Below are positions 6,622 to 28,359 of a stretch of 32,000 nucleotides of DNA, piece after piece. The position numbers and the translations under genes are program-made. The first letter of the stretch is position 1. Each line of letters starts with the position of its first letter. This DNA is from Candidatus Fokinia solitaria (GTDB lineage Bacteria; Pseudomonadota; Alphaproteobacteria; Rickettsiales; Midichloriaceae), in NCBI RefSeq assembly GCF_003072485.1, contig NZ_CP025989.1, positions 780,001-812,000 of the forward strand. The letters are read 5' to 3'. The notes under the pieces are model-generated. The model saw only the letters and a program-made list of their open reading frames with translations. It did not search any database and was not told where the DNA came from.

Positions 6622-7932
6622 CTACCTCATTCTATTCCATGATAAAGAACTAGCATGAGTCGCTACTACAGATTCTTTATTTCCATTTATATCGATAAAA
6701 TATATGCTGCTGATACCTCCATTTCCCTTACGTGCGCTAAACATCATACCAGAACCATTCGGTGCCCATGCAACATTATCAACTAGCAATGCACTATTTA
6801 AAAGCTTTTCTTCACTGCCATCAGCATTCATGATACCAAGATAGAACATACCATTTAAGCGCTTACTGAATGCTATATAATTTCCATCTGGAGAATACGA
6901 TGGAGTAAAGTACTGTCCACTACCAGTACTAATCTGATTGATCTTTCTCGTAGCTGAGTTAAGAGAGTAGATTCTATTGATACCACTATGATCAGAGGTA
7001 AATACCATTCTCGTACCATCATATGAATATTGCGCATTCGTAATAATAGCGTTTTTCACGGATAGTAAAGGTACCGTCTTACCACTACTCAAAGAGTACT
7101 CATATAAACCAGTAGTCCCCATATACGCTATGGAAAAGATCATCTTTCTCATATCCGGAGAAAAATTTATCGAAAAAATAGTGCCTTTTAGTGAAAGAAT
7201 TGGTTTCACACTACCATTCTCAAGATCTAGTCTCATAACGACTGTTCTATGATTCCAGTACTCTATATAATACAGCTTCGTACCACATGGACTAAATTGT
7301 GGATTATGTACTATATTTTTACCGTTTGTTACGTATACAGCATTATCGCCGTTATAATCCGCTATCACCAGCTTCGTAACTTGCTTTTTAGCTTTTTTCA
7401 GTTCTTTCACAAACGCCACTTTTGTAGCGAAGTAACCATTCTGACCAGTGATGTATCGATAAATTCGATTCGATATCGCATGCGAAACTTCTCTCCAACT
7501 ACTTATTGGTACTACTTTAGAAAAGGTATCAACTTGCTTCTTAAGTTTTACATCAAATAACTTATAAGATACCAATATTGAGTCAGCTGCTTTGTTACGC
7601 TCTACCCGTCCGAGTATTATAAGTGACGTACCACTCTTTTGCCATAAATGAAAGTTTGGCACATTCGTGAATCCTACATTTTCTAAGAATCCTCTAGGAT
7701 CTGAAATACTAAAAATTCCTGAAAAAGATAAATCTTTCGCAATTGCTGTAGAAATTTTCTGCGATACCGGAGACGCATCACCGTGAAACGGAAAAATCGC
7801 ACAATCTACGAAACGTACTTTATTTTGGGAGATTTTCAGTTCCAAAACAGCATGCGATGTATTCGCAAGCATCAGAGAGAATACAGCAAAAAGAAGGTAG
7901 GCTACTATGCGCCTAGAAGCAGAGAGACACAT
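6622..7932 (-). CDS. tolB: Tol-Pal system beta-propeller protein TolB
   Basis: It has a signal peptide and an N-terminal TolB domain. Repeated WD-like/PD40 propeller motifs follow (FSPCGTKLYY, FSPDMRKMIF, YSYDGTRMVFTSD, YSPDGNYIAFS, WAPNG). Length is 436 aa. Confidence 0.85.
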   Translation of the reverse strand: MCLSASRRIVAYLLFAVFSLMLANTSHAVLELKISQNKVRFVDCAIFPFHGDASPVSQKISTAIAKDLSFSGIFSISDPRGFLENVGFTNVPNFHLWQKSGTSLIILGRVERNKAADSILVSYKLFDVKLKKQVDTFSKVVPISSWREVSHAISNRIYRYITGQNGYFATKVAFVKELKKAKKQVTKLVIADYNGDNAVYVTNGKNIVHNPQFSPCGTKLYYIEYWNHRTVVMRLDLENGSVKPILSLKGTIFSINFSPDMRKMIFSIAYMGTTGLYEYSLSSGKTVPLLSVKNAIITNAQYSYDGTRMVFTSDHSGINRIYSLNSATRKINQISTGSGQYFTPSYSPDGNYIAFSKRLNGMFYLGIMNADGSEEKLLNSALLVDNVAWAPNGSGMMFSARKGNGGISSIYFIDINGNKESVVATHASSLSWNRMR

Positions 7933-13935: not shown

Positions 13936-14649
13936 ATGCTGAACTCTGTTAAAGCAATCCTGCTAGGATGTCCAGGCAGTGGTAAAGGCACTTTAGGAAA
14001 GGAAATATCGAAATTTCTTTCGATACCGATCCTTTCTACTGGAAAATTGCTCAGGAAGCTTTTTGCTAGCAAAGAACAGAATGGAAATAAAATCAACGGA
14101 GGCGCACTACTGGAAGACGATAAGATGATGCATATTCTGCAAGAAACATTAGTAAAAACAGAGTATACCAACGGAGTTATACTAGACGGATACCCTAGAA
14201 CGATAACACAAGCAGAGTTATTAGATAACGAGATAAAAAAAAAGGACGACACTATAATACTCGATATAGCAGTTAAGCCTGAAATCGCCATTAAGCGGAT
14301 TGTAGGAAGATTTATGTGCAGTCAATGCGATAGTATATACAATCTCTTCTTTAAGCTACCTTATATCAACAATATCATTCTAACGCAGGATATAACTGTG
14401 AAAGATCTGCTATCAAGTAATAATTCATCGTGTAAATGCGATCACTGCGGTAGCGAAACATTTTACAGTCGCGAAGATGATACCGAAGAAATAGCGTTAA
14501 AAAGGTATAAAGAATACGTCAAAAACACATTACCACTTACTGACTACTATAAACACAGAAAGTTCTATTTTCACTTCGATGGCAATAACTCATCTCAGCA
14601 CTTATTCGATGAAGTAAAGAATGTGCTTCATGCAAAGAAAGATAACTAG
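13936..14649 (+). CDS. adk: Adenylate kinase (long, Cys4 zinc-type LID with an extra insert), cytoplasmic form
   Basis: The P-loop is ILLGCPGSGKGT. STGKLLRK and ILDGYPRT are present. The LID is GRFMCSQC...CKCDHCGSETFYSREDD, followed by RYKEY...T.PL..YY. The ATG at 13936 gives 237 aa with no signal peptide. Confidence 0.85.
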   Translation: MLNSVKAILLGCPGSGKGTLGKEISKFLSIPILSTGKLLRKLFASKEQNGNKINGGALLEDDKMMHILQETLVKTEYTNGVILDGYPRTITQAELLDNEIKKKDDTIILDIAVKPEIAIKRIVGRFMCSQCDSIYNLFFKLPYINNIILTQDITVKDLLSSNNSSCKCDHCGSETFYSREDDTEEIALKRYKEYVKNTLPLTDYYKHRKFYFHFDGNNSSQHLFDEVKNVLHAKKDN

Positions 14650-14682: not shown

Positions 14683-15657
14683 ATGACATTGGTATTCATG
14701 GGTTCAGGAGAGTTCGCTTTATATCCATTGTTAAAGCTCCTTAAAAGCGAACATAAAGTGAGTGCAATATATACAAAAGGTGAAAAAAATAATCCGATTC
14801 TGAACTTAGCGCATGAAAACAGTATTCAAGTTTTTACTCCAAATTCTCTCAAAAGCGAAGACCATGTTACACAACTGAAAATGCTCGCTCCCACCATATG
14901 TGTAGTAGCATCGTATGGACTCATCATTCCTTCATCAATGCTTAATATTCCAGTAAACGGATTTATTAATATACATCCATCATCATTACCAAGATGGCGC
15001 GGCGCTGCTCCAATTCAACGTGCGATAATATCTGGAGACAGACATATCCACGTATGCATTATGCAGATGGATAGCGGACTTGATACAGGAAATATAATAC
15101 TATCTCAACTGGTAGAACTCAAAGACGAAACATACTCTGAGATTTTACCGATTCTTTCCAACATAGGTGCAAATTTACTGCTTGAAGCATTAGAATTAAT
15201 AAAAAAAAACACAACAATCTTCATAAAACAAGCTGAAGATGGCATTACATATGCTGATAAAATCAAGAACACAGAATGCATGATAAGTTATGATAAAACA
15301 GGATACGAAGTACATAACCTTGTAAGAGGACTCTCTAAAATAGCATGCGCTTTTCTACTATTTCAGCAAAAAAGATTAAACTTGATAAAAAGCACTCTAC
15401 TAAAATTTGGAAGTACTGAATATCAACAATACTTATGCACCGCTCAAGTTCTCTGTAATCTGCAATCTTTTTCAAAAGTCCATACAAAACATAGAATAGA
15501 GTTGCAAAATGCCGATCTGCTATTCGCTAAGAAAAAAGGCATAGGAATCTATTTTGCAGGCGATAGAAGTATACTAATTCTCGAAATAGTACAACTCGAA
15601 GGTAAAAAGATTATGTCTGGTGCAGATTTCTCAAACGGTCTATTGGTTAAAATATAA
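14683..15657 (+). CDS. fmt: Methionyl-tRNA formyltransferase
   Basis: MTLVFMGSGEFALYPLLKLL, VVASYGLIIP, INIHPSSLPRWRGAAPIQRAI and MQMDSGLDTG are all present. The C-terminal domain carries a modest insert. Confidence 0.9.
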   Translation: MTLVFMGSGEFALYPLLKLLKSEHKVSAIYTKGEKNNPILNLAHENSIQVFTPNSLKSEDHVTQLKMLAPTICVVASYGLIIPSSMLNIPVNGFINIHPSSLPRWRGAAPIQRAIISGDRHIHVCIMQMDSGLDTGNIILSQLVELKDETYSEILPILSNIGANLLLEALELIKKNTTIFIKQAEDGITYADKIKNTECMISYDKTGYEVHNLVRGLSKIACAFLLFQQKRLNLIKSTLLKFGSTEYQQYLCTAQVLCNLQSFSKVHTKHRIELQNADLLFAKKKGIGIYFAGDRSILILEIVQLEGKKIMSGADFSNGLLVKI

Positions 15658-15752
15658 CCCTCTTCAGTTTTACTTACTTTTTTTGAGATAAAGATTGCTT
15701 ATTTCATACCTTTGAGTAATATCAACTCCGAATATGAAATTTTTTATTGAGA

Positions 15753-16583
15753 ATGAAGAAATTTTTAACAGCAGTACTGCTCTCTGCGGTCGTTTTCATT
15801 AGCGCGTGTAGTCCGCAACATACTAATCTTGATAGCACTACTCAAGAAAATCCTATCTCAAGAGTAAAGATAATTCTCTTAGGTGCGCCAGGTAGCGGCA
15901 AAGGCACTTTCGGTGCAATGCTTTCCACTCAACTTAATGTTCCAATATTGTCAATGGGTGATGCAATACGAGAGTATTTCAAATCCTCTTCCGATCCTAA
16001 GGCTGCACAACTACAAGGCGGCAAACTGTTAGATGATGAAACTACTATTCAGATTTTAAAGAAAAAACTGTTAGAGCCACAGTATGCAAATGGTGTCATA
16101 TTAGACGGATATCCACGTACAGTAGCGCAGGGACTTATGTTAGATGAGGCTTTAGGCGCTAGCAACTCTCCAATCATTATCAACGTTCATGCTTCTCTTA
16201 ATGTGATAGAGAAAAGAAGTGCTGGTCGCTTTATGTGCGCTGAGTGTAATGCAATCTACAATCTATACTTCAGCTTGCCAAAGATACATGATAAGTCTCT
16301 CGATAGCGGCAAAGTCACAAGAGCACAGATGTTAGCACGTGATAATATGTGCACTTGCGATCATTGTGGAAGCAAGAAATTCTATGCGAGAAAAGACGAT
16401 ACACGTAAGGTGATATTGCATAGATATTGCGAATATCGGAAGAATACCTTGCCGCTTATAAAGCACTACCAAACGTATCCTGCTTTCTTCACTGTTGATG
16501 GCAATTGCTCCATTTCCCTTCTCTCTCAGCAAGCTATAACTCTTGCAGAGAAGCTTCGCCCTCTTCTCGCTGCTAGAAAATAG
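15753..16583 (+). CDS. Adenylate kinase paralog with an N-terminal lipoprotein signal peptide (predicted exported or membrane-anchored)
   Basis: M(R)MKKFLTAVLLSAVVFISAC has a basic n-region, a hydrophobic core and the lipobox I-S-A-C (Cys codon at 15807-15809). A Ser/Thr/Gln linker follows. The Adk core looks intact: ILLGAPGSGKGT (from 15882), SMGDAIR, ILDGYPRT, GRFMCAEC...CTCDHCGSKKFYARKDD and RYCEY...TLPL..HY. An alternative TTG start lies at 15747. Confidence 0.8.
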   Translation: MKKFLTAVLLSAVVFISACSPQHTNLDSTTQENPISRVKIILLGAPGSGKGTFGAMLSTQLNVPILSMGDAIREYFKSSSDPKAAQLQGGKLLDDETTIQILKKKLLEPQYANGVILDGYPRTVAQGLMLDEALGASNSPIIINVHASLNVIEKRSAGRFMCAECNAIYNLYFSLPKIHDKSLDSGKVTRAQMLARDNMCTCDHCGSKKFYARKDDTRKVILHRYCEYRKNTLPLIKHYQTYPAFFTVDGNCSISLLSQQAITLAEKLRPLLAARK

Positions 16584-16593
16584 AAGCATCTAA

Positions 16594-16628
16594 CTTTCCA
16601 AAAAGTGGCTTTTGCTCTTTTTGGAAAG
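16594..16628 (+). terminator. Perfect 12-bp inverted repeat 10 nt downstream of the adk-paralog stop (candidate intrinsic terminator)
   Basis: CTTTCCAAAAAG (16594-16605) pairs with CTTTTTGGAAAG (16617-16628) around an 11-nt loop. The stem is AT-rich, and only a short TTTT follows, 8 nt downstream. Confidence 0.45.
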
Positions 16629-16879
16629 GAAGCTGTTTTCTAGTAATCACTGCACTCAGCTTTGAGTATCCTCCTCGTCCGTGTTGCTGCGGCTAGCGAT
16701 ATAAAAAGCGTAAAAAGATTAGATACAGTAAAGTGCTACGGTTTTTCACTGCATTACTATAATACAGTACTTTCTATTTACTTCTTGCATCTCAATCCTT
16801 ACAATCATTGCCTTAGGTAGGTATATTTTTTCTTTGTCAAATAACACTTTAATTATCTTATAAAGTCTTCATTTTTCTT

Positions 16880-21648: not shown

Positions 21649-23049
21649 TTAAAACATCGCCAACGCGCGTATTCCAAATGTATAACTTACCTGATGCGCT
21701 GTTTGTCCATCTACTTTCATTCTTACAGTATCGTTATACGTAGCTTGATATTGAGCATACTGATTATTACTACCTTCATATACATAGTATGAATAGCCAT
21801 TACTATTTCCTTGCATAGGTGTAGTGCCTACATTCGAAAATACCGCTTCTTTTGTATTGGTATTATTCAACTCAGAACAATCTGCAATCTCACAACTACC
21901 ACTGCTTGGCGCATATGTATACTGAGCTGGTACTGCATTTACGCTTACCGTATTAGTACTACGTGATAATTTAGCACCAGGAGAGACGTATTGATTATCG
22001 GAGCTGAAAGTTATAGGTGATGTCGCATTTATAGTGCCGAATATTTCTAGCTGTATATTACCAAATTTTGTTGCAAAACCTCCAGTCAACGCAGTCACTA
22101 TACGCAGATCGTCAGGCGTAGTAATCTTTTCTTCAACGTAATCAGCTATCGATTCTTGTACTACCGTTTCGTTTCCAGAAAAAGCAACAGCGCCATACTC
22201 TCCAGAAATGCAACCACTAGCTGAATACGTGCAAGTAGGTTGCGTTGTAAAGAATGCTCCGCAGCCTGCGCCTGTACAGTACTCAGTAGTACTTCCATTA
22301 TCAGACCAACATGTTGAAGGTGTACTTACCGAACCAATTGCGCATCCTTGCACTGCTGATGCCGGAGTACAAGTGTTACTTGGAGAGCTATAACTGATTG
22401 TGCCAGCAGTGCTAGTACACGTACCACTTGCAGAGCTTATTCCAGAACATACCGAAGTAGCATTCACATACTCAGTTTGCCCTAACGCGGATACTACAAA
22501 TGATACATCTTCTCCACTCGGTGCATTCCATCCGTTATCAATAGCTTTAGCGGTAATATCAGTAATCTTTCCGCTACTATCCATAACTTTTATGCCAGAG
22601 ATCTCATATGTCTGATCCAATATTCCTATCGTTACTCCAACAAACGGCTTTATTTTCCTTTGACCGAAATACTTATTCACTCCAATACTCGTTGTAAAGC
22701 TGTTCACCGACAGCTGCTTGGCAAAGGTAAGCGCTTCACTTTCTACTTCATTATTGAAAAAATCTATCCCTATAAATGCTCCGAGCGAGCCAAACATACG
22801 ACCTACTCCAAATGTAAGACCAGGAGAGGCAACATAGTCATTTGTCACCTGTTCGATTTCACTATCTCTAGTACGTGTAGCAGTTGTATATTTCAGATTG
22901 TTATCCAGTTCTATTGCTGGTGTAAAGTTTACTATACCTCCGCCAAAAGCAAAATTCTTCCTCACTTCTGAAAGAGAATCTTGGATACTGATAGCTGAAA
23001 CAGCATTAAACGGCAATAGTAATAATAAAAGTAATCCTACGACGTACAT
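21649..23049 (-). CDS. Outer-membrane beta-barrel surface protein with a Cys/Ser/Thr/Gly-rich central insert
   Basis: It has a signal peptide (LLLLLLPFNAVSA|IS) and alternating amphipathic beta-strand segments (LTFGVGRMFGSLGAFIGIDFF, KPFVGVTIGI). The C-terminus YTFGIRALAMF ends in Phe, as in barrel OMPs. Residues about 201-280 contain 9 Cys in S/T/G-rich sequence. Confidence 0.7.
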   Translation of the reverse strand: MYVVGLLLLLLLPFNAVSAISIQDSLSEVRKNFAFGGGIVNFTPAIELDNNLKYTTATRTRDSEIEQVTNDYVASPGLTFGVGRMFGSLGAFIGIDFFNNEVESEALTFAKQLSVNSFTTSIGVNKYFGQRKIKPFVGVTIGILDQTYEISGIKVMDSSGKITDITAKAIDNGWNAPSGEDVSFVVSALGQTEYVNATSVCSGISSASGTCTSTAGTISYSSPSNTCTPASAVQGCAIGSVSTPSTCWSDNGSTTEYCTGAGCGAFFTTQPTCTYSASGCISGEYGAVAFSGNETVVQESIADYVEEKITTPDDLRIVTALTGGFATKFGNIQLEIFGTINATSPITFSSDNQYVSPGAKLSRSTNTVSVNAVPAQYTYAPSSGSCEIADCSELNNTNTKEAVFSNVGTTPMQGNSNGYSYYVYEGSNNQYAQYQATYNDTVRMKVDGQTAHQVSYTFGIRALAMF

Positions 23050-25225: not shown

Positions 25226-25885
25226 TTATTTAATTAATTTTTTATCGATCATCTCAAGTGATAATTCACTTTTTAACGGCGCGCCATTAAGTATCAAGTA
25301 TGGCGTATATTCTATCTTCAAGTCTTGCTTTCCTTGAAAAGACTGCTTTATTACTCTTCGTTTAAATAAATCACTTGATTTACAGTGCTCTATCTTACTT
25401 TTCGAGATATTATTAAACTCCAGTATTGAAATCATTTTCTTTTTATAGTCTCCAAAAAGCCAGGAAAGTTGATTCTTGTATAATACATCTATCACTCTGA
25501 AATAGAGATCATAATCATCATGACCAATACATAATGAAAGTGCTGCAGCATCAAGAGACTGCGCATCAAGCGGAAACGGACGATATATGTACAGCATCTT
25601 ACCAGTTTTGACGTACTTCTCTAATATCTGAGTAAATAAAGAAGCATGGTAGTGCGCACAATGAGGACAAGTAAGTGAAGAATATTCTATCATCACATTC
25701 TTCGCTTTCAGATTTCCGATGTAATAGTCATCATGCATTTTACTCAGCAACGGAGAATCAGTCACTATAGCATTGTCTTTTACTGGCGCATTTACAACAG
25801 AGTAAGTATTACTATATGGAAAAAGAAGACATATAAGACAGAATATGAACGTCAAAAAGCAATGTAAATCCCTTGAAAAAAGCAT
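25226..25885 (-). CDS. DsbA-family periplasmic thiol:disulfide oxidoreductase
   Basis: It has a signal peptide (CFLTFIFCLICLLFPYSNTYS) and a thioredoxin-fold active site, SSLTCPHCAHYH. Its stop is 8 nt upstream of the cydB start, on the same strand. Confidence 0.75.
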   Translation of the reverse strand: MLFSRDLHCFLTFIFCLICLLFPYSNTYSVVNAPVKDNAIVTDSPLLSKMHDDYYIGNLKAKNVMIEYSSLTCPHCAHYHASLFTQILEKYVKTGKMLYIYRPFPLDAQSLDAAALSLCIGHDDYDLYFRVIDVLYKNQLSWLFGDYKKKMISILEFNNISKSKIEHCKSSDLFKRRVIKQSFQGKQDLKIEYTPYLILNGAPLKSELSLEMIDKKLIK

Positions 25886-25973: not shown

Positions 25974-27317
25974 CTAATCTTGAAATTTTATGCGCGCTCT
26001 CAAACGCAGAATGGTGATAATATTGACGATCATTATGATTCCTCCTGAAATACTCATGATCAGCATCACGTCTTCTTGTTCCTGAAATGCAAAAATACTA
26101 AAGGCAAATATCGCATATATTACGTATATTACCCTGCCATACTTTGCGTGAATATAAGATGCTGCCTTTTGCCCTACTACAAAATATCCTATGATAGTGC
26201 TAAAACCGGCAATCACAATCACAAGCGTAATATAACATTCTACGAAAAAAGAAGGTAGAAATTTTTCGAGAGAGAAAGATACATACTGAAAGTGACTCAA
26301 TCCCTTTTGCTGAAAAGCGCCACCAAGCTTTGCAATCAAGAGACTGATCATCGATATAACAGTATCGGTAAATAATGAAAAAAACGTCGTTCTCGCATAA
26401 GAAGCAGGAGATGTCATTATCTTCGCTTCACTATGTACAACCGAATCATACCCCATTCCTATATCTCCAGAATATATCCCTCTCGCGAAACCATAATGCA
26501 TTGCTATTATCACACCTACTATATTCCATCTATCATTATGAAAGTCATAAAATTTCGTCCCTTGATATAAGATTTCATACAATATCTCCGGAATGGCAGC
26601 ATAATTTATCGCTATCACATATAATCCAATACCAATATACGATACTAGTAACACTGGCATTATAACAGCGCATATCTCACTCAGCCTTTTTACTCCTCCA
26701 AGTGCACTTGCCATCACACAACATAGCGTAGCTGCTACTATAATTGCTTTATCCACTCCAAGTAACGTGGAAATACTATCGGTAATAACAAGAAATTGCA
26801 CAATCTCCACTCCATATATGCATAACAGTACAGATATCAGTAAGGGTAATACCGTCTTCAGCACACTACTTTCCTTAAAACTACCAGCGATATAATACAT
26901 CAATCCGCCATCATATCCATCGCCATTCCTTTTCTTCACTCTATACTGTATTGCAAGATAAACTTCGCAATATTTCACAATCATACCAATAAAGGAAGCG
27001 AGCAGCATCCACAAAATACTCCCCATTCCTCCAAGCGTCACCGCACCCATTATCGTCACTATATTACCTACTCCTACCATGCCACCAATTGAAGAGAAAT
27101 ATAACTTCCATGGAGGTAATCCGTAAGACGAATTTGTTTTATGAGAAGCTATGCCGAAAATTTCAGATACATTCTTAATAGGATTTTTTAATGTACGTAT
27201 CTGTAAGAAGTGCGCTTTATACGTGAGATATACGCCTCCGATTAAAATGACGAATATTCCAAGGTACTCCCATATAAAACGATCTATCCATGCGAAAAAT
27301 GAAAAAATATACCCCAT
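25974..27317 (-). CDS. Alanine/glycine:cation (sodium:alanine) symporter, AGCS family
   Basis: The N-terminus (IDRFIWEYLGIFVILIGGVYLTYKAHFLQIR) and the motifs SSIGGMVGVGNIVTIMGAVTLGGMGSILWM and YSGDIGMGYDS, in a protein of about 11 TM segments and 447 aa, are typical of AGCS transporters. Confidence 0.85.
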   Translation of the reverse strand: MGYIFSFFAWIDRFIWEYLGIFVILIGGVYLTYKAHFLQIRTLKNPIKNVSEIFGIASHKTNSSYGLPPWKLYFSSIGGMVGVGNIVTIMGAVTLGGMGSILWMLLASFIGMIVKYCEVYLAIQYRVKKRNGDGYDGGLMYYIAGSFKESSVLKTVLPLLISVLLCIYGVEIVQFLVITDSISTLLGVDKAIIVAATLCCVMASALGGVKRLSEICAVIMPVLLVSYIGIGLYVIAINYAAIPEILYEILYQGTKFYDFHNDRWNIVGVIIAMHYGFARGIYSGDIGMGYDSVVHSEAKIMTSPASYARTTFFSLFTDTVISMISLLIAKLGGAFQQKGLSHFQYVSFSLEKFLPSFFVECYITLVIVIAGFSTIIGYFVVGQKAASYIHAKYGRVIYVIYAIFAFSIFAFQEQEDVMLIMSISGGIIMIVNIITILRLRARIKFQD

Positions 27318-27429
27318 AAATCTACCACGCCAATCTTATTCTTTTTCTATCACTTATACCTTCGAATATAGTATATATCAAATGTGCAATGACATATCTC
27401 TTAGCACAATAAACGAATATATAAGCATC

Positions 27430-28359
27430 ATGATCAGAATGATAGAAAAATTCAGAGAGATGCTTCTTAGCGAATTTCAAGCAAGTAATAACACTATTAT
27501 ATCGTATGTTACAGACTTAAAATTCTTTAACTTCTTTCTTCAAGAGAGAAAAATTGCACCACTATCTGTCACTCATTCTGACATTACGGATTATCTTGTT
27601 ACCTTAAATAAAGAATCTTCTGCCACCGTAAGACGCAAGATATCAGTTTTAAAAAGATTTTATAGCTTTCTACTAACTGAGAGAGATATTACAGAAAATC
27701 CAACACTTAGCATCAAATATCCGAAACGAGAACATAAATTGCCGAACGTACCGAGTGAAACGGATATAATAAAGATGTTCACAGGCATTCGTGAACTATA
27801 TTTGAATGATGAATTTCTATTATTACGAAATAATGCAATATTTGCGGTACTATATTCTACAGGACTCAGAGTATCAGAACTGATTACGCTTAAACTTGCT
27901 GATGTTATGGAAAACGAATATTTGCGCGATAACTCTGTAAAAAGAATTATCAAAGTAATAGGAAAGGGCAATAAAGAACGTAATGTAGTACTGAACGATA
28001 TCGCGTATGCAACGTTGGCGCAATACGTACATCTCATCATAACTACGAAAAAGAACTGCAACAATTTTGGATGGCTATTTTCTTCCGAAGATTCTCCAAC
28101 TACTCATCTTACAAGACAGAGAATCGGACAGATTATCCGTGAAGTAGCGACGTATATGAACATAGATAAAAAATTGATATCGCCTCATAAAGTAAGGCAT
28201 GCTTTCGCTACTCATATCTTGAGAAAAGGCGCACAAATTCATGTGTTACAGAAAATACTCGGACATTCTTCTATCACTTCAACGCAAATATATACCTCGG
28301 TATTGAATGACGATCTGAGAAATATGCTTAATGACAAGCATCCTCTTTCAAAAAAGTAA
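27430..28359 (+). CDS. xerD: Tyrosine recombinase, XerD type (chromosome dimer resolution)
   Basis: The N-terminal SAM-like domain contains SNNTIISYVTDLKFFNFF. The catalytic set is present: LYSTGLRVSEL (R), VIGKGNKER (K), SPHKVRHAFATH (HxxR) and LGHSSITSTQIYT (H...Y). GLRVSEL and RHAFATH favour XerD over XerC. The start is set at the ATG at 27430. The ORF-track start at 27151 would overlap the AGCS gene by 167 nt and adds non-homologous residues. Confidence 0.8.
   Translation: MIRMIEKFREMLLSEFQASNNTIISYVTDLKFFNFFLQERKIAPLSVTHSDITDYLVTLNKESSATVRRKISVLKRFYSFLLTERDITENPTLSIKYPKREHKLPNVPSETDIIKMFTGIRELYLNDEFLLLRNNAIFAVLYSTGLRVSELITLKLADVMENEYLRDNSVKRIIKVIGKGNKERNVVLNDIAYATLAQYVHLIITTKKNCNNFGWLFSSEDSPTTHLTRQRIGQIIREVATYMNIDKKLISPHKVRHAFATHILRKGAQIHVLQKILGHSSITSTQIYTSVLNDDLRNMLNDKHPLSKK

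Follow-up and report, generated by a model that had tools for sequence, protein, structure and literature searches.

A putative lipid-anchored, periplasmic adenylate kinase in the Paramecium endosymbiont Candidatus Fokinia solitaria

Adenylate kinase (Adk) is known outside the cytosol in the form of AK2 of the mitochondrial intermembrane space, of mammalian ecto-Adk, and of the Adk that some pathogens secrete without a leader (PMC2680645). AK2 is concentrated in the intermembrane space as a partner of the adenine nucleotide translocator (PMC2680645), the N-acylated AK2 of Plasmodium goes to the plasma membrane of the parasite and to the parasitophorous vacuole (PMC4409355), and a secreted, leaderless nucleoside diphosphate kinase (Ndk) has also been described (PMC5121656). 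Here we describe adk2, a gene that encodes an Adk preceded by a predicted lipoprotein signal, located in a 32,000-nucleotide stretch of the genome of Candidatus Fokinia solitaria (Midichloriaceae, Rickettsiales), an endosymbiont of Paramecium; this whole stretch is referred to as the window, and positions are counted from its first letter. We consider it probable, with considerable room left for doubt, that the product is a catalytically competent enzyme, anchored by a lipid in the periplasm, beside the ATP/ADP translocases of this bacterium.

The physiology of the organism makes such a location of interest. F. solitaria possesses neither the Krebs cycle nor nucleotide synthesis, it lacks lipopolysaccharide (LPS), and it encodes two ATP/ADP translocases (PMC5905368), while the cells are found bare within the cytoplasm of the host, with no host vacuole around them (PMC4701390). 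The paper describing the genome makes no mention of an adenylate kinase among the “typically intracellular” proteins predicted to be secreted (PMC5905368). Our full-text literature searches found no occurrence of “periplasmic adenylate kinase” and no description of a lipoprotein Adk, no paper tying an Adk signal peptide to chlamydiae or rickettsiae, and none joining adenylate kinase, the periplasm and energy parasitism, in agreement with an initial annotation of the window, whose author knew of no described lipoprotein Adk. The protein as such is already present in databases, under a generic name, with 100% identity to the entry “Adenylate kinase [Candidatus Fokinia solitaria]” of NCBI; of interest are the predicted location and a parallel in chlamydia-like bacteria.

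The N-terminal signal and the kinase core of adk2

As an in-frame TGA is found at positions 15738-15740, the candidate starts of adk2 are limited to a TTG at 15747 and an ATG at 15753. In F. crypta, the only other Fokinia species sequenced, the ortholog (277 aa, 78% identity) retains the ATG but has no TTG in the first position, and the start is therefore the ATG, resulting in a product of 276 aa. The initial annotation had left the choice between these two codons open, in a plus-strand frame ending at 16583; this frame is borne out, the start lies nowhere else in the ortholog, and the positions given for the lipobox Cys codon and for the P-loop are exact. It had further claimed that no internal start precedes the P-loop, and a codon check agrees: no in-frame ATG, GTG or TTG occurs from codon 2 to the P-loop in F. 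solitaria. In F. crypta a single internal TTG is present, at codon 9, within the hydrophobic core.

The N-terminus reads, in order, MKK, a hydrophobic core of 12 residues (FLTAVLLSAVVF) and I-S-A-C, and it is followed by a polar linker of 18 residues, each element as previously noted. We applied a lipoprotein rule of the PROSITE type (PS00013/PS51257; six uncharged positions before the box, the Cys at 15-35, a Lys or Arg among residues 1-7) together with the strict lipobox of DOLOP, [LVI][ASTVI][GAS]C. The adk2 products of both species satisfy the two, with K2 and K3 in each, with an uncharged region and lipobox of LLSAVVFISAC (F. solitaria) and LLSVVTLLSSC (F. crypta; leader MKKFLVAVLLSVVTLLSSC, lipobox L-S-S-C), and with the Cys at residue 19 in both. 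Of the 75 six-frame open reading frames (ORFs) in the window that are 60 aa or longer, adk2 alone satisfies the combination, and among 200,000 random N-termini matched in composition, 152 do so (0.08%). A looser lipobox pattern, used alone, selects 2 of the 24 probable genes of the window, adk2 and a gene for a TolC-like OEP. TolC-like outer-membrane proteins belong to a class that is often lipidated, but the match in question, read from its listed GTG start, lacks a Lys or Arg among residues 1-7 and does not pass the strict rule, and we take it as a weak hint at most that the genome encodes Lgt and LspA. The Kyte-Doolittle peak (11-aa window) reaches 2.69 in the adk2 leader, versus 1.45 in the neighboring paralog adk1. 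The 18 residues following Cys19 look like a flexible tether: this is the least conserved segment of the protein (44% identity between the two species, versus 82% for the kinase core), and the model produced by AlphaFold2 (AF2) has a predicted local distance difference test (pLDDT) score of only 46-58 across residues 1-30, i.e., the leader and the start of the tether. Genes for Lgt, LspA, Lnt or the Lol system are found neither in the window nor in the syntenic stretch of F. crypta. Overall, the original reading of the product as an exported enzyme gains support from a rule-based lipoprotein test that is positive in both orthologs, export itself being predicted, and none of the outcomes that the initial annotation had named as refuting turned up in the checks made.

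The same N-terminus could go unprocessed, as an uncleaved membrane anchor or a non-functional leader, with the kinase staying in, or on the side of, the cytoplasm and forming a second Adk there. In favor of this are the reliance of the signal prediction on rules alone, the many unexpected signal peptides predicted on Fokinia proteins of an intracellular type (PMC5905368), and the fact that the cytoplasm is the ordinary place for a zinc-finger LID. However, a hydrophobic stretch of about 12-15 residues is too short for a typical membrane helix, and the N-terminal Lys-Lys pair would hold the N-terminus inside, so that an uncleaved anchor would place the kinase outside; such positive charges and such a core seem to fit a cleavable signal better. 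Both species have kept the lipobox Cys, at precisely the same position, while the tether diverged, and adk1, a signal-free paralog, is already available next door. We thus regard an unprocessed N-terminus as quite unlikely.

Downstream of the predicted tether, adk2 is a complete Adk of the long type, with an intact active site. It scores 90.9 bits against the Pfam ADK model (PF00406; cut-off 26.8) and 28.3 bits against ADK_lid (PF05191; cut-off 26.6). In an alignment of 72 Adks, the P-loop columns G44, P46, G47, G49, K50 and G51 are invariant and T52 nearly so, as are the catalytic residues K50, R73, R122, Q126, R159, R213, D215, D216 and R224 (invariant) and R155 (nearly); in an alignment of seven sequences that includes the E. 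coli Adk, all of these catalytic residues, R155 and T52 among them, are invariant. The E. coli equivalents are K13, R36, R88, Q92, R123 (for R159), R119 (for R155), R156, D158, D159 and R167. The AF2 model has a mean pLDDT of 90 and a predicted template modeling score (pTM) of 0.83, poor definition being limited to residues 1-30, and all of the top 50 Foldseek matches in the PDB are adenylate kinases (E down to 2.9e-17), the best being zinc-containing Gram-positive Adks and reconstructed ancestors (target-normalized TM scores of 0.85-0.89). The claim of an intact kinase core thus holds at the levels of domain models, residues and fold, the last through the structure modeling that the initial annotation had proposed: none of the arginines of the LID and of the nucleoside monophosphate (NMP) site has been lost, the P-loop Lys is invariant, and the GYPRT and R.DD motifs are found, the latter as RKDD. 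We expect the enzyme to be catalytically competent.

The LID is where the early description needs amendment. It had been called a Cys4 LID, and both Cys pairs are indeed present, C162/C165 and C202/C205 aligning with those of Cys4-LID Adks (P0005 and P0011, the latter from Thermosipho), the LID being presumably zinc-binding. However, there are five cysteines, C200 creating a C-x-C-x-x-C arrangement, and an insertion of about 20 aa, modeled as two short helices with pLDDT values of about 89-96. Two further cysteines, Cys226 and Cys252, are specific to adk2, and a disulfide between them is conceivable in an oxidizing compartment.

Another possibility is that adk2 is exported but has changed its specificity, to a GTP:AMP kinase or a broad NMP kinase, and salvages non-adenine nucleotides. 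This would suit an organism without nucleotide synthesis, and there are peculiarities that point in this direction, such as the NMP-binding segment, which is LSMGDAIR where ISTGD..R is usual and has a Ser for Asp70 in F. crypta, and the LID insertion, unique to the two Fokinia Adks. Speaking against it, all of the arginines are retained, the closest structural matches are true Adks, and Gln126 is in place, the equivalent of E. coli Gln92, which confers AMP specificity. An altered specificity therefore strikes us as rather improbable.

The adk locus, its history and related signal-bearing enzymes

The paralog adk1, located 1.1 kb upstream, is about 42-44% identical to adk2 and has no lipobox; with this signal-free and presumably cytoplasmic enzyme nearby, adk2 would be free to act elsewhere. 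The gene order adk1-fmt-adk2-POT is the same in F. solitaria and F. crypta, and the synteny comparison suggested in the initial annotation thus finds the signal-bearing paralog kept at the same locus. The LID insertion, which lies between the two Cys pairs, occurs in both paralogs of both species and in none of the other Adks aligned (in adk1 of F. solitaria it falls at about 14400-14470); the fifth LID cysteine is likewise common to the two paralogs. In a neighbor-joining tree, with no AK2 sequences included, a clade of the four Fokinia Adks receives 100% bootstrap support, as does each pair of orthologs. The shared insertion and this clade indicate that the signal was gained after a duplication of adk within the Fokinia lineage: the duplication preceded the split of the two species, and one copy acquired the signal.

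Two other origins were considered and rejected. One is derivation from a host. Giant proteins with 2-7 Adk domains and up to 2,709 aa, probably eukaryotic flagellar Adks, are the best matches after Fokinia in the representative search (P0121-P0166), yet their identity per domain is the usual ~30-35%. The other is transfer from a family of chlamydia-like Adks (see below), which is contradicted by the tree and by the shared LID insertion.

The gene has been maintained under constraint. Synonymous sites are saturated between the two species, the proportion of synonymous differences (pS) being about 0.7 (0.71 for adk2), while non-synonymous divergence (dN) is 0.136 for adk2, compared to 0.164 for fmt and 0.20 for adk1, and adk2 is under strong purifying selection. 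A block of 30 nt within the 95-nt fmt-adk2 spacer is nearly unchanged in F. crypta despite the synonymous saturation, and a terminator-like hairpin follows the stop codon, with a folding energy of -23.6 kcal/mol (z = -5.0) in F. solitaria and -15.6 kcal/mol (z = -3.6) at the same place in F. crypta (L001 10845-10890), where the sequence is different, so that structure is conserved and sequence is not. Near adk2, a scan for promoter and terminator consensus did not rise above background, and it picked up neither the block nor the hairpin, which came to light through the comparison of the two species and through folding; as the block is below the scan threshold, the promoter label is our inference. 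The gene probably has expression signals of its own. In favor of a decaying duplicate or an annotation artifact without a function is that the gene is a duplicate and that the genome evolves fast and is reductive, but the frame is intact in two species despite the synonymous saturation, dN is below that of both adk1 and fmt, the start codon, the upstream block and the downstream hairpin are conserved, and the fold is predicted with high confidence, making decay highly improbable.

Exported Adks appear not to be unique to Fokinia, as Sec-type signal peptides are carried by a large family of chlamydia-like Adks. An exhaustive representative search with adk2 produced further single-domain Adks with hydrophobic N-terminal leaders, and a search with one such sequence (P0210) at least 119 clusters of 213-277 aa, at 55-87% identity. 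With a leader defined as an extension of 15 aa or more that precedes the first strand, and with a hydropathy window of 10 aa, starting within the first 15 residues, that reaches 1.9 or more, signal-peptide-like leaders are present in 102 of the 119 top P0210 matches versus 2 of 116 generic Adk matches. These leaders resemble substrates of signal peptidase I (for example, MKTLILGLCLLITSLGLVVYA preceding AEP), the catalytic residues are intact, and the Cys4 LID is also retained in these putatively exported enzymes. One of the family members (P0302) carries the NCBI label “Parachlamydiaceae bacterium,” and the contig of another encodes a YidC of 823 aa, with 1005 bits against NCBIfam NF002168, a model (NF002168/PRK01001) that we take to be that of the chlamydial YidC. 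Proteins of the Ank, F-box and LRR types are encoded in the neighborhood of the signal-bearing Adks and, along with YidC, suggest host-associated bacteria, a chlamydial origin of the family being only partly established. In a smaller group (P0181, P0082, P0386, P0387) the leaders end at the first strand, and one of the contigs contains kdp and mgtE. The sequences concerned are P0210, P0267-P0385, P0181, P0082, P0386-P0395 and P0416 (loci L003, L004, L006, L087, L091 and L093), and this family of Sec-signal Adks, found in chlamydial-looking contigs from metagenomes and metagenome-assembled genomes (MAGs), is apparently undescribed. A contig scan with back-translated patterns of the signal-bearing Adks came down to generic motifs, the 80 loci listed being mostly ordinary Adks of Lachnospiraceae and Clostridia (Firmicutes), with a few from other phyla.

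The likeness of these enzymes to adk2 lies in a single, catalytically intact domain with a hydrophobic leader directly before the first beta-strand (236-254 aa in the P0210, P0302 and P0181 groups). Unlike adk2, they mostly possess leaders of the signal peptidase I type (for example, ending in VVYA before AEP), with no lipobox and no LID insertion. In the tree they form a separate, weakly supported clade along with a signal-free Chlamydiales Adk, and adk2 is outside this clade, the Fokinia pair, with its lipobox-type leader, constituting a 100% clade of its own; the Fokinia signal was thus gained independently.

As to the remainder of the window (Table 1), the large ribosomal operon is broken in both Fokinia species, as the genes for S17, L14 and L24 continue into tolB in place of the usual L5...secY-adk order, and this may relate to adk lying elsewhere. 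A DsbA-like protein of the Thioredoxin_4 family, with a hydrophobic N-terminus, is encoded next to cydB and indicates that disulfides are likely formed in the periplasm, a matter of relevance to a Cys-rich enzyme if exported. A presumably exported protein of 466 aa, without a match in Pfam, has a clear signal peptide (MYVVGLLLLLLLPFNAVSA) and is conserved in F. crypta (465 aa). An ORF for a XerC/D-type integrase overlaps the 5' end of a Na/Ala symporter gene on the opposite strand by ~170 bases; its Pfam match begins at residue 98, and it probably starts later than listed.

Table 1. Positions of adk2, its elements and other features of the window
Feature	Position	Strand	Basis or remark
adk2, 276-aa Adk precursor with a predicted lipoprotein signal	15753-16583 (stop included)	+	ORF call, NCBI identity, Pfam
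Predicted signal peptide MKKFLTAVLLSAVVFISAC	15753-15809	+	n-region MKK, h-region F4-F15, lipobox I16-S-A-C19
Lipobox ISAC	15798-15809	+	
Cys19 codon TGT, predicted lipidated +1 residue, Ser at +2	15807-15809	+	Cys19 in both species
Polar 18-aa putative tether SPQHTNLDSTTQENPISR	15810-15863	+	44% interspecies identity, low model confidence
P-loop GAPGSGKGT (aa 44-52, Lys50)	15882-15908	+	conserved columns
NMP-site motif GDAIR, Arg73 = E. coli Arg36	15957-15971	+	R73 invariant
GYPRT, Arg122 = E. coli Arg88, Gln126 next	16107-16121	+	R122, Q126 invariant
LID C162-A-E-C165 ... C200-T-C202-D-H-C205 with insertion	16236-16367	+	alignment
LID insertion, ~20 aa (aa ~178-199)	16284-16349	+	Fokinia-specific in alignment
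R213-K-D215-D216 ... R224 (E. coli Arg156, Asp158, Asp159, Arg167)	16389-16427	+	invariant columns
RKDD	16389-16400	+	
Cys226, adk2 only	16428-16430	+	kept in F. crypta adk2, absent from both adk1
Cys252, adk2 only	16506-16508	+	kept in F. crypta adk2, absent from both adk1
Intergenic block TTGCTT, 16 nt, TAATAT (promoter-like)	15695-15722	+	F. crypta comparison
Terminator-like hairpin, then UUUUCU, directly 3' of the adk2 stop	16584-16638	+	inverted repeat, folding
adk1, 237-aa paralog without signal, presumed cytoplasmic	13936-14649	+	Pfam ADK, 108 bits
fmt (methionyl-tRNA formyltransferase), between adk1 and adk2	14683-15657	+	Pfam Formyl_trans_N, Formyl_trans_C
Genes for S17, L14, L24	8173-9362	-	both Fokinia species
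tolB	6622-7932		both Fokinia species
DsbA-like Thioredoxin_4 protein	25226-25885	-	adjoins cydB
466-aa protein with signal peptide	21649-23049	-	F. crypta homolog
XerC/D-type integrase ORF	25974-27317	-	overlaps symporter gene
Na/Ala symporter	27151-28359	+	

Location and possible role

The location and the reactions that we propose would be as follows. The Sec system would export the precursor, Lgt would attach diacylglycerol to Cys19, and LspA would cleave between Ala18 and Cys19, leaving the mature enzyme hanging on its flexible tether of ~18 residues from a membrane that faces the periplasm. With Ser at position +2 this may be the outer membrane, going by the Lol rule of E. coli. There adk2 would catalyze the reaction ATP + AMP <-> 2 ADP, with adk1 serving the cytoplasm. 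Because Fokinia is naked in its host, does not synthesize nucleotides and possesses two translocases, the periplasm would be the site of both uptake of host ATP and release of ADP. The ADP released could be converted into ATP, to be re-imported, and AMP, which the host would receive. The ATP/ADP ratio at the translocase face would thereby be buffered, both phosphoanhydride bonds of host ATP could become usable, and the energy gained per host ATP could double. Such a coupling to the translocases we propose only tentatively, as a possibility somewhat short of probable, and with less confidence than the location of the enzyme.

A number of points weigh against this picture. No translocase gene adjoins adk2, the neighbor being a POT-family peptide transporter by Pfam, and the coupling is purely inferential. 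The Cys-rich, presumably zinc-binding LID would have to fold where the DsbA-like oxidase would act. The signal was called by sequence rules, and many Fokinia proteins that are positive in SignalP are “typically intracellular” (PMC5905368), so that spurious signals in this lineage are not to be dismissed. Export, lipidation, the choice of membrane and activity are, all four, predicted from sequence.

The lipoprotein might also be on the cell surface, facing the host cytoplasm, where it would act on host adenylates or moonlight, as an adhesin or otherwise in interaction with the host. The naked life style and the lack of LPS are compatible with this, as is Ser at +2, given outer-membrane sorting, while Plasmodium AK2 presents a precedent of a lipid-anchored Adk at a host-parasite interface, and growing evidence of internal proteins located at the surface of rickettsial species is cited in the genome paper (PMC5905368). 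On the other hand, no system for export of surface lipoproteins was identified in our analysis, and Adk is already abundant in the host cytosol, so that an additional one on the surface should be of little effect. As to moonlighting, the entire active site of adk2 is strictly conserved, which disfavors a purely non-enzymatic role. A surface location thus seems unlikely to us, and, like the unprocessed N-terminus, the altered specificity and decay, it is less well supported than a periplasmic Adk.

Energy parasitism via ATP/ADP translocases is a defining trait of both Rickettsiales and Chlamydiae, and it figures in ideas on the origin of mitochondria. However, the translocases have been studied in isolation, and the fate of nucleotides in the periplasm, between the host and the transporter, has been largely ignored. 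A conserved and intact Adk with an export signal offers a testable hint at a managed periplasmic pool of adenylates, like the one attended by AK2, and the same solution in many chlamydia-like sequences suggests a general principle, not a curiosity of one genome, Chlamydiae being the other classic energy parasites with ATP/ADP translocases (PMC1951785). If adk2 is exported and active, then the energy balance of ATP theft shifts, as AMP in place of ADP is given up for the ATP taken in, the host-symbiont interface offers an accessible new target and marker, and we have a clean case of a housekeeping enzyme re-addressed through duplication and gain of a signal peptide. One may speculate further that a periplasmic Adk is a dedicated, hitherto overlooked partner of the translocases of energy parasites, that it has two origins or more, one in Fokinia as a lipoprotein and one in chlamydia-like bacteria as an enzyme exported by Sec, and that it is the bacterial counterpart of AK2, with ATP in and AMP out and both high-energy bonds harvested; as a generalization this is doubtful at present.

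Comparison with described adenylate kinases

In terms of enzyme type, the closest described relatives of adk2 are the zinc-containing Cys4-LID Adks of Bacillus subtilis and Geobacillus (PDB 1p3j, 1zin), with which it shares the P-loop, the arginines, the Cys pairs of the LID and the predicted fold. These enzymes are cytoplasmic and leaderless, whereas adk2 adds a predicted signal of 19 aa, a tether of 18 aa, the LID insertion, a fifth LID Cys, and Cys226 and Cys252.

In terms of location, one example is presented by the Adk of Pseudomonas aeruginosa and the Ndk of Porphyromonas gingivalis, which, like the proposed adk2, are nucleotide-interconverting kinases found outside the cytoplasm. However, the secreted, leaderless Adk and Ndk are housekeeping enzymes without a signal, while adk2 is a dedicated paralog with what appears to be a classical lipoprotein signal, and it thus falls outside this class. 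Another example is AK2 of Plasmodium falciparum, likewise a lipid-anchored Adk of an intracellular parasite, with N-terminal targeting and a place at the host-parasite interface; it differs in being eukaryotic, in carrying N-myristate and S-palmitate in place of a signal peptide, and in being secreted non-classically (PMC4409355).

A third example, and the one closest in the role envisaged, is AK2 (Aky2 of yeast). By analogy, adk2 would have a membrane on either side and an adenine-nucleotide antiporter beside it, and would buffer ADP, ATP and AMP. AK2, however, is a soluble protein of the intermembrane space that carries neither a Sec nor a lipobox signal, and the net flux would be the opposite, as mitochondria export ATP and Fokinia imports it; nor should adk2 be filed as an AK2, its closest relative in the tree being its own paralog adk1. 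In conclusion, adk2 is a well-known enzyme in a variant form, and not a new kind of system.

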